Positions 13,515 to 16,882 of a stretch of 64,000 bases of DNA are shown one piece after another. Location: NCBI RefSeq assembly GCF_045037415.1, contig NZ_CP173440.1; one strand, written 5' to 3'. This stretch comes from Escherichia coli. GTDB taxonomy: Bacteria > Pseudomonadota > Gammaproteobacteria > Enterobacterales > Enterobacteriaceae. The translations under genes were made by a program, and so were the position numbers. Positions within the stretch are counted from its first letter, which is position 1; every line of letters begins with the position of its first letter. The notes beneath the pieces are model-generated. The model was given only the letters and a program-made list of their open reading frames with translations, did not search any database and was not told the origin of the DNA.

Positions 13515-14096
13515 TCAGATGCAAATTGCAGAGTTTAGCTGGGGAAGTCTGTCGGTTAATAAACTGTATTCGGAGAGTCTGTCTGTTTCCAAGGTATGCA
13601 AGAGCAATGTTTCCGTCCTGGACAATAAAACATTATTCTCCCATACATCATGATGTAATTTATTGACCGGTTCTCCGGTTCGATATGATTCCATCATTGG
13701 TTGTATTTTAACCGGCGCGGCGTTGTGATAAGAAGGATGGAGCCTCGGTTTAAATTCATCAAGCCCAATATTTAAGCCTATATATTGTGATATTAGATCA
13801 AAATCACAATCCAGCACTATAGTTTTAATATTGTGCTGAACAATACCGATGTCTTCTATGTACCATTTATATTGTGTTGTAAAATGACTTACTTTTTTAT
13901 CATATTCAAGAAGTAAGCCAATCATTGCTTTACGATTTTTTTGCATACCCACATTAAGCCGTTTATTAGGAAACGGTCTTCCGCATGAAAGCGCATCGCC
14001 TTTAATCTCAAACTTCAGTTCCGGGATCGTCACTGATTCAAGTCGGCATTTATTTGAAATGGTGTGGTATAGTGTTGGTACAAGATGAAGATGCAT
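13515..14096 (-). CDS. hypothetical protein (AT-rich block)
   Basis: 193-aa ORF in a visibly AT-rich stretch. Confidence 0.45.
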   Translation of the reverse strand: MHLHLVPTLYHTISNKCRLESVTIPELKFEIKGDALSCGRPFPNKRLNVGMQKNRKAMIGLLLEYDKKVSHFTTQYKWYIEDIGIVQHNIKTIVLDCDFDLISQYIGLNIGLDEFKPRLHPSYHNAAPVKIQPMMESYRTGEPVNKLHHDVWENNVLLSRTETLLLHTLETDRLSEYSLLTDRLPQLNSAICI

Positions 14097-14134
14097 GACT
14101 CCCCCCGAAAAAGATGTAGTCCCAGCAGCTTAGT

Positions 14135-14428
14135 TTATTCAGCCCAGAACGGGGTTAATGGTACGCGGTCTCCCCTGAGTAGTTGCTTTAAATTGGCCTC
14201 GTGAAAAGTCCGATAATGCTCAATGTTCGCTTCGCAAAAGGCTTCAAGTTCAAGTTCGGTCAGTCGAGGAGAATAAATCAGGAGTGAATCGGTTTCATCA
14301 TCAGCAAACTGCTCTGTTCCATCGGGATACATGAGTCGTGGAACTCCTCCAATAAGCATTTCCACCTCAGTTATAAAAGGTGTCGTATCTTGAGACTGGA
14401 AATTCAAAAAAACAGTTCTGTCACACAT
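14135..14428 (-). CDS. hypothetical protein (AT-rich block)
   Basis: 97-aa ORF. Confidence 0.4.
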   Translation of the reverse strand: MCDRTVFLNFQSQDTTPFITEVEMLIGGVPRLMYPDGTEQFADDETDSLLIYSPRLTELELEAFCEANIEHYRTFHEANLKQLLRGDRVPLTPFWAE

Positions 14429-14444
14429 TAAGATGCTCCTGCTT

Positions 14445-15026
14445 TCAAAAATAGAGTATTTTGTACTTATCTTGGCTGAACTTCACGTTCAGGAAGAGAG
14501 GTGTATAACCAGGCTCAATCGTCTTGTCATCAAATGAAATCCCCCGTGCAATGTTTTCCCTAATCTTTCTTTTAAGTAGTTTGATGAATTTTGACTTTAA
14601 AAAAGACTCTTGCGACAAATCAACCTGCGAAACTGGAATGGAATAAATTTTCTTTGAGTACCGGTAACCATCGAAATCATTATAACATAGATTTATACTA
14701 ATAAATTCCGAACGCGAACCCCTGCCTTTATTTGCTAAATCATATGCTGATTGCTTATCTGACTCTTTAATTTTAATAAATGAAGAATCATGATAGTTCT
14801 CTGGTAACACCGTAACGATACATCCTGATGTTATGTCCCTGATTAGAACGTACCATCTTTCATCCAGACGACTATAAATCAGAATGTGTTCTTTTAATAT
14901 CCCGGGCTTGGAACCCAAGTCGACATATTCCCTTTTATCGAGAATATCAGTGAGTACATGCAGAGGAAGTCGAGAACGCTGCATAAGTCTGAGTCTGGCA
15001 TGGTCGGTTATGCCTGTGTATACCAT
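14445..15026 (-). CDS. hypothetical protein (AT-rich block)
   Basis: 193-aa ORF. Confidence 0.45.
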   Translation of the reverse strand: MVYTGITDHARLRLMQRSRLPLHVLTDILDKREYVDLGSKPGILKEHILIYSRLDERWYVLIRDITSGCIVTVLPENYHDSSFIKIKESDKQSAYDLANKGRGSRSEFISINLCYNDFDGYRYSKKIYSIPVSQVDLSQESFLKSKFIKLLKRKIRENIARGISFDDKTIEPGYTPLFLNVKFSQDKYKILYF

Positions 15027-15079
15027 ATTTCCTCCTCACCTACTGTTTTATACAAATGTTAATTATTCATCCATGACTG

Positions 15080-15469
15080 TTAATCACCTCCACTGCACCC
15101 TGAATCTGAAGTGTCCGAATAACTGCAATCTCCTCCATTAATAATGGTACTATCCGATTGTACGTTGCTTGTTGATGATAAATAAATGCTATGGATAATC
15201 AGTGAGGAATCATCACTATCACTCTGTTTATACCGGTGAGTCAGAGGTTTCCCCGCTATGGATAATGATTTTTCGTTTTTATTTATGTTGCCTGGAACAA
15301 CTGGAACTTTAGGGGTAATGAAAATATACCAGCTAAATGAAAACCACCAGGAGACCAACGCGTAATAAAACAACCACGGCCAGTCGCTTAGCCAATAACC
15401 ACCGTGATAGGCCAAAAGTAAGGTACAGGCCCCTCCCAACAACACCAGTTTCCGAAACAGCATAAACAC
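15080..15469 (-). CDS. hypothetical membrane protein
   Basis: N-terminal hydrophobic segments; paralogous to the 16068-16274 product (YHGGYWLSDWPW vs YHMGYFLSDWPF). Palindrome site directly 5' of an AAGAGG ribosome-binding site. Confidence 0.5.
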   Translation of the reverse strand: MFMLFRKLVLLGGACTLLLAYHGGYWLSDWPWLFYYALVSWWFSFSWYIFITPKVPVVPGNINKNEKSLSIAGKPLTHRYKQSDSDDSSLIIHSIYLSSTSNVQSDSTIINGGDCSYSDTSDSGCSGGD

Positions 15470-15504
15470 CTCTTAGCAAAAGTAACTTTTGCGAGTGGGT
15501 TTTA

Positions 15505-15984
15505 TCAGTGCAGCATCAATTCCTGAGCCGTAGATTGCCCGCGATGCCCAGCATCAATAACCGCCATCATCGGCTCAGCAATACCGACTACATCCTCGTC
15601 AATACCAGCACAACGACAGACCACATCAATGATCGCCAGAAGTTCATTAAGCGTCATCGGCTCATCAATCTTCACTTGCGTAATATCTTTCTTAATAATC
15701 GCATCACGGGCAGCACTATGCCGTTTCTGGTTATATAGCCAGACTGCATGGGTATTAGGTACCTGTTCACCGGGTGCGGAATTGTCAGTGTCTGAGTCTG
15801 CTACAAAAATGCCAACCTGGTTTTCAATCCCTGCGCACTGGCAGATTGAATTTGTCAGCTCCAGAAGCTGATTCAGTGTAGGAGAACAGAGCAACTCAAT
15901 TGATGATGTTGCACGGGCCTTAATAGCGCTTGCTACAGTGTCATGATGTTTTTTGCTGTAAAACGACACGGTCATGTTACTCAT
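15505..15984 (-). CDS. hypothetical protein with internal repeat
   Basis: 159 aa; two similar segments (LNQLLELTNSICQCAGIENQVGI / LNELLAIIDVVCRCAGIDEDVVGI). Confidence 0.45.
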   Translation of the reverse strand: MSNMTVSFYSKKHHDTVASAIKARATSSIELLCSPTLNQLLELTNSICQCAGIENQVGIFVADSDTDNSAPGEQVPNTHAVWLYNQKRHSAARDAIIKKDITQVKIDEPMTLNELLAIIDVVCRCAGIDEDVVGIAEPMMAVIDAGHRGQSTAQELMLH

Positions 15985-16067
15985 GGTGTTTTTCCTTCTA
16001 TGCTTTTCCGTAAATTGACTGAGTGGCCTGTATGTAGAGAGTGGAACAGGCCAGTACAGGTAATGCT

Positions 16068-16274
16068 TTACTGACCGGTAGTTTTGCCTTCCTGAGGTTC
16101 GTCTTTAGAAGACGCCCTTTTTTTCAGTCCAAAACGACCAGCAAAGTAGGCCAGCGCCAGGATGGCGTATACCTGCCAGAAAGGCCAGTCCGAAAGGAAA
16201 TAGCCCATGTGGTAGGAGAGGATCAACAGCCCGATGATGGGTACCAGTAATGCTTCCCGTTTAATGTTTTTCAT
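16068..16274 (-). CDS. hypothetical small membrane protein
   Basis: 68 aa, one or two TM helices, paralogue of the 15080-15469 N-terminus. Palindrome site directly 5' of a GAGG ribosome-binding site. Confidence 0.45.
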   Translation of the reverse strand: MKNIKREALLVPIIGLLILSYHMGYFLSDWPFWQVYAILALAYFAGRFGLKKRASSKDEPQEGKTTGQ

Positions 16275-16351
16275 TTCTACCTCAAAAGTGACTTTTATTG
16301 GTTAATTTGTGCCTGTGGCATAGTAATGACACTATTCTTTACTTCTCTCTC

Positions 16352-16882
16352 CTAGTCGCAGTTCACCCCCACTACAAAAAGGACCAGCCCAGTGGTGACA
16401 TTAAGGCTTCTGAGATCGGTCTGTTCTGTGGTTAAGGCCCTGAGATTGGCGTCAGTCGCATCCAAGGGGTATAGCGCCTGTGTCAACAGGAGAGCATTTT
16501 CATCCGAGCAGGTTAAACCGAGAGAAATAACGTATGACTGATAATTCAGCCGTACCCGCTTCTGTTCCTCGTCGCCCGCGCAGTTAAAATAATCGAGCGA
16601 GCGTGGCTCAAATGCCTCATCTGCAATGCTCTCCAGCACCCCATGTTTTTGAGGCATGATCTGCAATGGTAATACCGCTGCCGGGAACTGGTTACAACTG
16701 TGGCCTCCGCATTGTTCTTCGCCAAGGAACCAGTCCTGGGAAGGTGACTCCGGAACTATCTTCGTTGAAGCCAGCACCAAAGCAGGGTATTGATCGTCAT
16801 GACAGAACCAGGGGGCAAAATGCTTCTCCGAAATATCGGATATATTTCTTCCATACAGAATCGGTGGAATAGAGGATTTCAT
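16352..16882 (-). CDS. hypothetical protein
   Basis: 176-aa ORF. Confidence 0.45.
   Translation of the reverse strand: MKSSIPPILYGRNISDISEKHFAPWFCHDDQYPALVLASTKIVPESPSQDWFLGEEQCGGHSCNQFPAAVLPLQIMPQKHGVLESIADEAFEPRSLDYFNCAGDEEQKRVRLNYQSYVISLGLTCSDENALLLTQALYPLDATDANLRALTTEQTDLRSLNVTTGLVLFVVGVNCD

Follow-up and report, generated by a model that had tools for sequence, protein, structure and literature searches.

What kind of locus is a run of seven small minus-strand genes at positions 13515-16882 of contig NZ_CP173440.1, and what controls it? The genes lie in a 64,000-nucleotide stretch of this contig that was analyzed as a whole (hereafter, the window) and are lettered A to G in transcription order. 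An initial annotation, made from the letters alone, had read the block as horizontally acquired DNA encoding tightly controlled small membrane proteins of the kind found among abortive-infection effectors, exclusion factors, or type I toxins. The comparisons described below show that the block is conserved backbone of pNDM-MAR-type IncHI1B plasmids, lying beside the replication origin, and is no imported island. As to its control, we give slightly better than an even chance to a reading by analogy with the kil-kor system: the block would be a backbone operon in a KorB-like global regulon, and a 13-bp palindrome found before two of its genes would be the operator of a 413-residue ParB-like protein.

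The palindrome before genes B and D

The palindrome AAAAGTNACTTTT was found directly before the ribosome-binding sites of B and D, 0 nt and 3 nt, respectively, from their Shine-Dalgarno sequences, which are canonical in both genes. This placement had been pointed out in the initial annotation. The motif itself is far above chance: with no more than one mismatch allowed, it occurred 27 times in the window, compared with 0.28 expected occurrences, and its 11-mer core was present in 30 exact copies; the motif was the most over-represented palindrome of the window apart from a clustered regularly interspaced short palindromic repeat (CRISPR). Open reading frames (ORFs) take up 84% of the window, yet 14 of the 27 sites were located outside them (P=1.4e-5). 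The backbone DNA of plasmid NZ_CP117741.1 contained approximately 1 site per 2 kb, and not a single site was detected in the plasmid's ~83 kb of accessory DNA, consisting of a ~36-kb resistance island and ~47 kb of virulence-plasmid DNA. The motif also ranked first among enriched palindromes in two other plasmids, an IncHI1A representative with 12 copies over 33 kb and an IncHI2 representative with 12 over 41 kb, and occupied comparable places there.

Both sites in the block are conserved. Among four orthologous loci, the central base and one arm base vary at the B site, and the DNA further upstream diverges; at the D site only the central base varies, and this site is also present in three further loci (L018, L019, and L020). 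Every lineage that has B and D has kept the two sites. The position beside the ribosome-binding site was probably inherited with the duplication that gave rise to B and D. At several conserved promoters of other genes, 22-29 nt separate the site from the -35 box downstream of it, which places it 100-108 nt before the start codon, and this arrangement at the DUF4942 gene recurs in four of the five lineages compared. Additional sites were found inside long tra genes, near the replication origin, and near the likely transfer origin. The claim of tight control is plausible for B and D, in that a conserved, operator-like palindrome distributed over the whole plasmid is located at both translation starts. 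Searches of the literature for the motif sequence returned nothing relevant, and the palindrome is not mentioned in a transcriptome paper on R27 (PMC7366339).

Several individual copies are described here. The copies at 19305, 19476, 19593, and 20160 flank the iterons of the RepHI1B replicon; the palindrome itself was considered as the Rep iteron and ruled out, the iterons being a different repeat (Table 1). Two perfect copies, at 51439 and 51541, lie in the gap that separates mobI from the trhR homologue (51329-51922), the likely location of the transfer origin, and the same arrangement is present in IncHI1A and IncHI2. Two near-identical DNA segments (61190-61260 and 63610-63680) each carry one copy, at 61226 and 63646, respectively.

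A candidate binder is encoded outside the window, approximately 1 kb to the left of position 1. This 413-residue protein (WP_004197197.1) matched the PHROG family of ParB-like partition proteins (E=1.2e-23), and BLASTP aligned it (E=2e-21) with an IncC protein annotated as ParB that itself contains Pfam HTH_ParB. Six perfect copies of the palindrome are located within 750 bp upstream of its gene, ~0.1-0.9 kb beyond the window edge. On NZ_CP117741.1, the gene and its sites occupy 106719-108818 (L022 47720-49819), ~0.1-2.2 kb to the left of window position 1. Homologues were found in ~2,400 plasmids. Those of IncHI1A and IncHI2 are ~36% identical to the 413-residue protein, and each is preceded by two sites, ~101-109 and 223-228 nt upstream.

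Genes A to G in the plasmid backbone

The window is part of a Klebsiella IncHI1B/IncFIB conjugative plasmid of the pNDM-MAR type. Region 13000-17400 showed 100% identity to many Klebsiella pneumoniae plasmids of 200-430 kb typed as IncHI1B/IncFIB, which carry a MOBH relaxase and an MPF_F mating apparatus. The region was present in 530 PLSDB records, 476 of which covered at least 80% of it. The RepHI1B replicon and a MOBH transfer region (mobI, mobH, traD, and traF/H/G) are contained in the window, and the block belongs to a long series of small minus-strand genes that starts beside the replication origin.

To place the block, we compared it with eight diverged loci from other assemblies and metagenomes (L010-L013 and L017-L020). 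The order A-B-C-D-(E-F)-G-DUF4942-DUF5983 is held in these loci, including relatives at dS values of up to ~1, and the flanking backbone genes are also kept, with Rep upstream and the DUF4942 and DUF5983 genes downstream. Because gene order and flanks are kept in diverged relatives, the block is assigned to the backbone and not to an acquired island, an assignment also backed by dN/dS values (ratio of nonsynonymous to synonymous substitution rates) of 0.08-0.36 at dS of up to 1.4. Its genes were found in 520-533 PLSDB plasmids; D was detected in 533 plasmids by tblastn, and E was full-length in 517 of 521. No integrase, tRNA, or insertion sequence (IS) was found at the block's own boundaries. 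Variation among the relatives is local: E is frameshifted, truncated, or absent in some of them, F is truncated in L010-L012, and either gene may be broken or missing. In L017, a D-type gene precedes C and none follows it; G is followed by an additional membrane-protein gene in L018 and L019; and L019 has an extra diverged paralogue of C (174 amino acid residues, L019 2165-2689) between B and C, followed by another copy of the palindrome. The B-C-D module is prone to duplication.

The base composition agreed with the initial annotation only in part. The GC content of the whole block was 0.428, compared with 0.463 for the window, and corresponded to the 10th percentile of equal-sized windows. 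The only clearly low part was E-F-G (13515-15026; 0.393, 2nd percentile), and this low GC extends past the block into 11.9-13.5 kb; A-D, which contain both paralogues, had a GC content of 0.461, equal to the window average. The GC skew, which had been suggested as a check, was the same in the block as in its flanks. Taken together with the conserved synteny, the occurrence in ~530 plasmids, the backbone-specific palindrome inside, and the lack of mobile boundaries, these values give no support to horizontal acquisition of the block.

All seven minus-strand ORFs are present in the ORF list. The dN/dS ratio was 0.11-0.36 at dS 0.25-1.4 for every gene compared with L010, L012, and L013, D included and E left out. 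By this measure, which covers all but E, the ORFs are real genes under purifying selection. The statement that none of the proteins is recognizable holds for A-F, which had no match in Pfam, NCBIfam, PHROG, or PADLOC, and fails for G, which matched Pfam PF19475 (DUF6012, a family of unknown function) in every locus. G is the only gene of the block with a clear IncHI1A homologue, a DUF6012 gene with 40% identity (E=3.7e-40). The two genes directly downstream of G were assigned by Pfam to DUF4942 and then DUF5983; DUF6012, DUF4942, and DUF5983 genes belong to enterobacterial plasmids and islands, and A-F fall outside any family. Direct runs of E and F against Pfam returned nothing at E-values of up to 10, PDB sequence searches with A, C, E, and G returned nothing significant, the PADLOC-DB hidden Markov models gave no family for any of the seven proteins at E-values of up to 0.1, and Rfam had nothing in 13000-17700 at E-values of up to 1. 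The literature on DUF6012 likewise yielded nothing relevant. The AlphaFold2 model of E had a predicted local distance difference test (pLDDT) score of 46, too poor for a fold search, and a suspected resemblance of its N-terminus to DUF4258/RelE-type toxins was not supported by Pfam. The ATG at 15463 is the likely start of D. D represents an annotation gap, as it is unannotated in RefSeq copies identical to the window and annotated in diverged plasmids.

The genes were most likely transcribed as a single eight-gene operon, judging from sequence signals: a predicted promoter, followed by a zinc-ribbon-like gene and A-G, and then a predicted terminator (Table 1). The zinc-ribbon-like gene, not among the genes named in the initial annotation, is probably the first gene of the operon. 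It agrees with its L018 orthologue at 66 of 97 aligned positions, the stop being counted, and its 96-residue product matched phrog_28753 (unknown function; E=6.5e-7) with no significant match in Pfam. The promoter-like sequence ATAGGGGCTTTACAC...TGTATAAT (17349-17383) lies upstream of this gene, and ATAGGGGCTTTACAC..TGTATAATTGTTCCTG has hardly changed in four loci (L013, L018, L019, and L020) in which the neighboring DNA diverges. The hairpin that follows G probably marks the operon end, and a hairpin also occurs at the same position in L010, L012, and L013. Intergenic gaps within the block are 16-83 nt. No promoter of the conserved backbone type was found at or just after the palindromes of B and D. 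The promoter of the DUF4942 gene, which would open the next transcription unit, is kept in all five lineages compared.

Two additional promoter-like features were observed around the block. The module (A/T)AGGGG(C/T)TTGAYR-N16-TATCCTGG recurs six times in the window, each copy in the proper orientation ahead of a backbone gene, namely at 13178-13212, ~11001, 7573, 6621, and 439 on the minus strand and 36162 on the plus strand. A near-consensus match on the plus strand (CTGACA-16-TATAAT, 11/12; 13253-13280), directed antisense towards G, is located 8 nt from the palindrome at 13233 and is kept in L012 and not in L010.

The paralogy of B and D was borne out by BLASTP, which aligned residues 6-40 of one with residues 6-40 of the other (15/35 identities, E=5e-8). 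Thirteen positions are invariant across the orthologues of both proteins (M1, R6, L10, L17, L19, Y21, H22, G24, Y25, L27, W30, Y36, and F44). The motif YH.GY.LSDWP, by which the two had been related, is thus sound at Y21, H22, G24, Y25, L27, and W30, whereas its final P varies. Hydropathy and charge suggest that each protein crosses the membrane twice, the two helices being connected by a very short loop (LSDW) and both termini facing the cytoplasm; D has in addition a conserved, acidic, Ser/Asp-rich tail of ~80 residues. A word-indexed search of 5.8 billion clusters returned 23 clusters of B relatives, all at least 68% identical, and a combined B and D profile gave 13 matches among 1.84 billion representative proteins, all of which were B/D orthologues or fragments. 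Among the proteins searched, B and D form an orphan family with no relatives outside the lineage.

Protein C, encoded between them, consists of an internal tandem duplication (E=2e-11), and its model of fair quality (pLDDT 76.8) contains two beta-alpha-beta-alpha-beta domains. The fold search with this model found no known relative, and no evident signal peptide was present. An IncHI1A (R27-like) plasmid encodes a 74-residue single-domain protein weakly similar to one C repeat (hhalign E=2.5e-5, probability 75%; Foldseek rank 16). On IncHI1A CP119496.1 (L023 1353-2186), a palindrome is followed by a gene for a 154-residue two-helix membrane protein and then by this C-repeat-like gene, a possible single-copy counterpart of B-C-D. 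Homology of the 154-residue protein to B and D was ruled out (hhalign probability 0.2%). We speculate that the two membrane paralogues and the two-domain soluble C form a pseudo-symmetric membrane-anchored complex.

Table 1. Positions of the genes, palindromes, and other features discussed in the text.
Feature	Position	Strand	Description
Terminator-like hairpin	13479-13501	-	Predicted; GC-rich hairpin and T run directly after G
Start of next transcription unit	13178-13245	-	Palindrome 13233-13245, 26 nt, then promoter GGGGGTTGATG-N16-TATCCTGG of the DUF4942 gene
Gene G	13515-14096	-	193 aa (amino acid residues); Pfam DUF6012; dN/dS 0.11-0.19
Gene F	14135-14428	-	97 aa; no known family; RefSeq start 14407; dN/dS 0.21
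Gene E	14445-15026	-	193 aa; AT-rich; no known family
Gene D	15080-15463	-	127 aa from ATG at 15463 (ORF 15080-15469); dN/dS 0.31-0.36
Palindrome AAAAGTAACTTTT	15478-15490		In the 41-nt C-D spacer; 14 nt before the D ATG, 3 nt before AAGAGG
Gene C	15505-15984	-	159 aa; tandem duplicate of a ~55-aa beta-alpha-beta-alpha-beta domain; CxCAGI motif
Gene B	16068-16274	-	68 aa; paralogue of D; predicted to form a two-helix membrane hairpin; short basic tail; dN/dS 0.14-0.17
Palindrome AAAAGTGACTTTT	16284-16296		9 nt before the B ATG; abuts GAGG (0 nt)
Gene A	16352-16882	-	176 aa; no known family; dN/dS 0.20 against L013
Zinc-ribbon-like gene	17016-17306	-	96 aa; CxxC...CxxC
Operon promoter	17349-17375	-	Predicted from sequence; -35 TTTACA 17375-17370, -10 TATAAT 17354-17349, preceded by ATAGGGGC
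Palindrome AAAAGTGACTTTT	17578-17590		~200 nt upstream of the operon promoter, in the remnant of a small membrane-protein gene; ortholog in L018 at 4151
ISL3-family element	17864-19084		Beyond the predicted operon promoter
Iteron-like direct repeats	19772-20051		n=4, GAACGTACGACSGTTAAT; downstream of the RepHI1B gene
Type IV-A-like Cas6/DinG cluster	~22.8-28.3 kb		cas-like genes

A proposed KorB-like regulon and its alternatives

Under the reading that we favor, the palindrome would be the operator of the plasmid-encoded ParB-family protein WP_004197197.1, which would act like KorB as a global silencer of backbone operons. Bound at the sites before B and D, it would hold the membrane proteins and the genes downstream of them at a low level in established cells; operator binding would lower expression there, and the block would therefore behave as a kil locus of a kil-kor regulon. 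A burst of expression of the operon after entry of the plasmid into a new cell would be possible. Toxicity of B and D on over-expression, which may occur, would fit such a kil-type role. The model for this reading is IncP-1 (RK2/RP4), where the KorB operator OB is TTTAGCSGCTAAA, a 13-bp palindrome with a free central base. The two systems share the length of the palindrome and its free center, the large number of copies, all in the backbone, whose distance from promoters varies and some of which fall within genes, a helix-turn-helix protein of the ParB family (here a candidate) with sites before its own gene, and targets that include replication, transfer, and kil loci with small, partly membrane-bound proteins of unknown function. 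They differ in that the site sequences are unrelated, a Pfam ParBc or KorB match of its own is lacking for the IncHI protein, whose arginine patch is degenerate, ~30 sites occur in 64 kb here compared with 12 on RK2, no KorA-like partner was identified here, and the IncHI network is known from sequence.

Several points weigh against the proposed regulon. The pairing of the 413-residue protein with the palindrome is drawn from co-location and analogy; the gene lies outside the window, and the conventional ParAB pair of the plasmid could provide the binder instead. The protein itself had no significant Pfam, NCBIfam, or PDB sequence match, its arginine patch reads GHCRHRA compared with the cytidine triphosphate (CTP)-binding GERRxRA motif that clamp sliding requires (GHRRRRA in the IncC homologue), and KorB-like sliding dependent on CTP is uncertain. 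The operon promoter and terminator are predictions, and with no evident promoter at B and D, a bound protein could act there as a roadblock, mark a loading site, or have no local effect. A site adjacent to the ribosome-binding site was seen only at B and D, and this position may reflect short spacers and inheritance through gene duplication. Toxicity of B and D and an interaction of B, C, and D may be envisaged as conjecture.

The same sites could serve as dispersed centromere or loading sites for partition, bound by the ParB-like protein or the conventional ParB, with no regulation of B and D. Their position would then be incidental, short spacers being the only neutral place for a site that was copied along with the gene. 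The family of the candidate binder, the sites inside long tra genes and around the replication and likely transfer origins, and the restriction of ribosome-binding-site-adjacent placement to two paralogues are all consistent with partition. The strong intergenic enrichment, the fixed offset to the -35 box with the recurring DUF4942 arrangement, and the retention of the B and D sites argue against partition as the whole explanation, which we judge to be unlikely. The two roles are also not exclusive. Partition and regulation coexist in KorB and in SopB of the phage-plasmid N15, whose dispersed palindromic sites for this ParB-type protein also influence nearby promoters. N15 resembles the present plasmid in the scattering of such sites over the replicon, and differs in having four of them, compared with dozens here, several of which keep a constant distance from promoters of one conserved type. 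Action of the palindrome in mRNA is improbable. According to this account, a hairpin before the Shine-Dalgarno sequence partly hides it and either throttles translation of B and D or makes it dependent on an RNA-binding factor, and the flanking bases (ACC...GGU at B and CUC...GAG at D) help to hide it. The hairpin does appear in the minimum-energy folds, where part of the Shine-Dalgarno sequence is paired, and the bases just upstream are conserved (AACCAAT at B and CACTCGC at D), but the folds are no more stable than those of shuffled sequence (z = -0.32 and +0.79). No compensatory changes were found, L018 having AACG for AACC with no matching change opposite, and Rfam gave no match. The motif also occurs upstream of promoters and in origin regions that are not transcribed, and its orientation relative to genes is not fixed, all of which fits a DNA site.

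Two other accounts start from the proteins and not from the palindrome. B, D, or both could be entry-exclusion (Eex) proteins that sit in the inner membrane and stop redundant conjugation by an IncHI-type transfer system. The Eex proteins of SXT/R391 and IncC are small inner-membrane proteins with a cytoplasmic tail, encoded by elements with a MOBH relaxase and an MPF_F apparatus; B and D, as predicted, and their plasmid share these characteristics. They differ from Eex in lacking homologues outside their own lineage among the proteins searched, in being missing from IncHI1A and IncHI2 plasmids whose tra genes are related, and in their location beside the replication origin, ~35 kb from the tra genes and ~40 kb from traG. 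A 95-residue one-helix protein convergent with the end of traG (60731-61018) is better placed, on the assumption that the SXT/IncC layout applies here, and entry exclusion by B or D appears highly improbable. We regard as the least probable of the accounts weighed here the one offered initially, a horizontally acquired defense, abortive-infection, or type I toxin cassette with small membrane effectors. B and D are indeed small membrane proteins, each with a control element that is conserved, the E-F-G part is AT-rich, and the loss or breakage of E and F in some relatives resembles that of toxin-antitoxin and defense genes. This account is opposed by the conserved synteny, the average GC content of the paralogues, the lack of mobile-element boundaries, the intact E in nearly all PLSDB plasmids examined for it, the lack of PADLOC, PHROG, and Rfam matches in the block, the canonical ribosome-binding sites, the two predicted helices, and the conserved tail of D. 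The resemblance to Hok/Sok is limited to small plasmid-encoded membrane proteins under tight control after entry, the latter being proposed for B and D. Type I toxins of this kind have fewer than ~60 residues and one helix, whereas B and D have 68 and 127 residues and two predicted helices each, are preceded by strong Shine-Dalgarno sequences, lie inside a multi-gene unit with no Rfam antisense RNA, and have no similarity to Hok.

A wider form of the KorB-like reading is more tentative, and we consider it possible at best. The IncHI lineages represented by R27, R478, and pNDM-MAR would share KorB-like silencing, in which a divergent ParB-family protein and dozens of AAAAGTNACTTTT sites connect the origins of replication and transfer with the tra operons and an array of small 'establishment' genes. 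B-C-D would then be a lineage-specific membrane complex of the kil type, silenced by operators at its ribosome-binding sites and switched on briefly after transfer.

Neighboring loci and significance

Other loci in the window were recorded. The CRISPR array (28469-29400; 61-bp period, CCCCCG-N4-CGGGGG repeat core, at least 16 units) adjoins genes whose annotations read Cas6/Cse3 and DinG-like helicase, an arrangement seen in a plasmid type IV-A system, and a group II intron (Rfam RF02005) begins directly after it at 29771. A sok antisense RNA was detected at 35297-35472 (Rfam RF01794, 96.9 bits), indicating a real hok/sok locus outside the block. In 17477-19084, the ISL3 element adjoins an apparently truncated copy of a membrane-protein gene whose intact form (~120 residues) is found in relatives (L013 6385-6753), and other plasmids have an extra IS630 insertion in this region. 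Two small one-helix proteins that are paralogues of each other (60731-61018 and 63109-63423) are encoded immediately past the end of traG and are possible entry-exclusion candidates by their position; the two near-identical segments with palindrome copies described above lie close to them.

Hybrid plasmids of the pNDM-MAR-type IncHI1B group carry NDM and CTX-M resistance together with hypervirulence genes in Klebsiella, and in Salmonella and Enterobacter, resistance is driven by IncHI plasmids of the R27 and R478 types. For most backbone genes of these plasmids, no function is known. To our knowledge, the regulators described for R27 (HtdA, TrhR/TrhY, and H-NS) all concern conjugation. The block itself is ordinary uncharacterized backbone DNA with an orphan protein family, and the gains at this level are modest: a missing annotation of D, a defined orphan membrane family, and the removal of an unsupported 'defense island' label. 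In the literature searched, no description of the operator network or of its ParB-like candidate was apparent. If the proposed regulon is true, the network would show which of the unknown genes, those of the block included, belong to one program, and together with the ParB-like candidate it would provide an experimental handle on the coordination of replication, transfer, and establishment in these plasmids.

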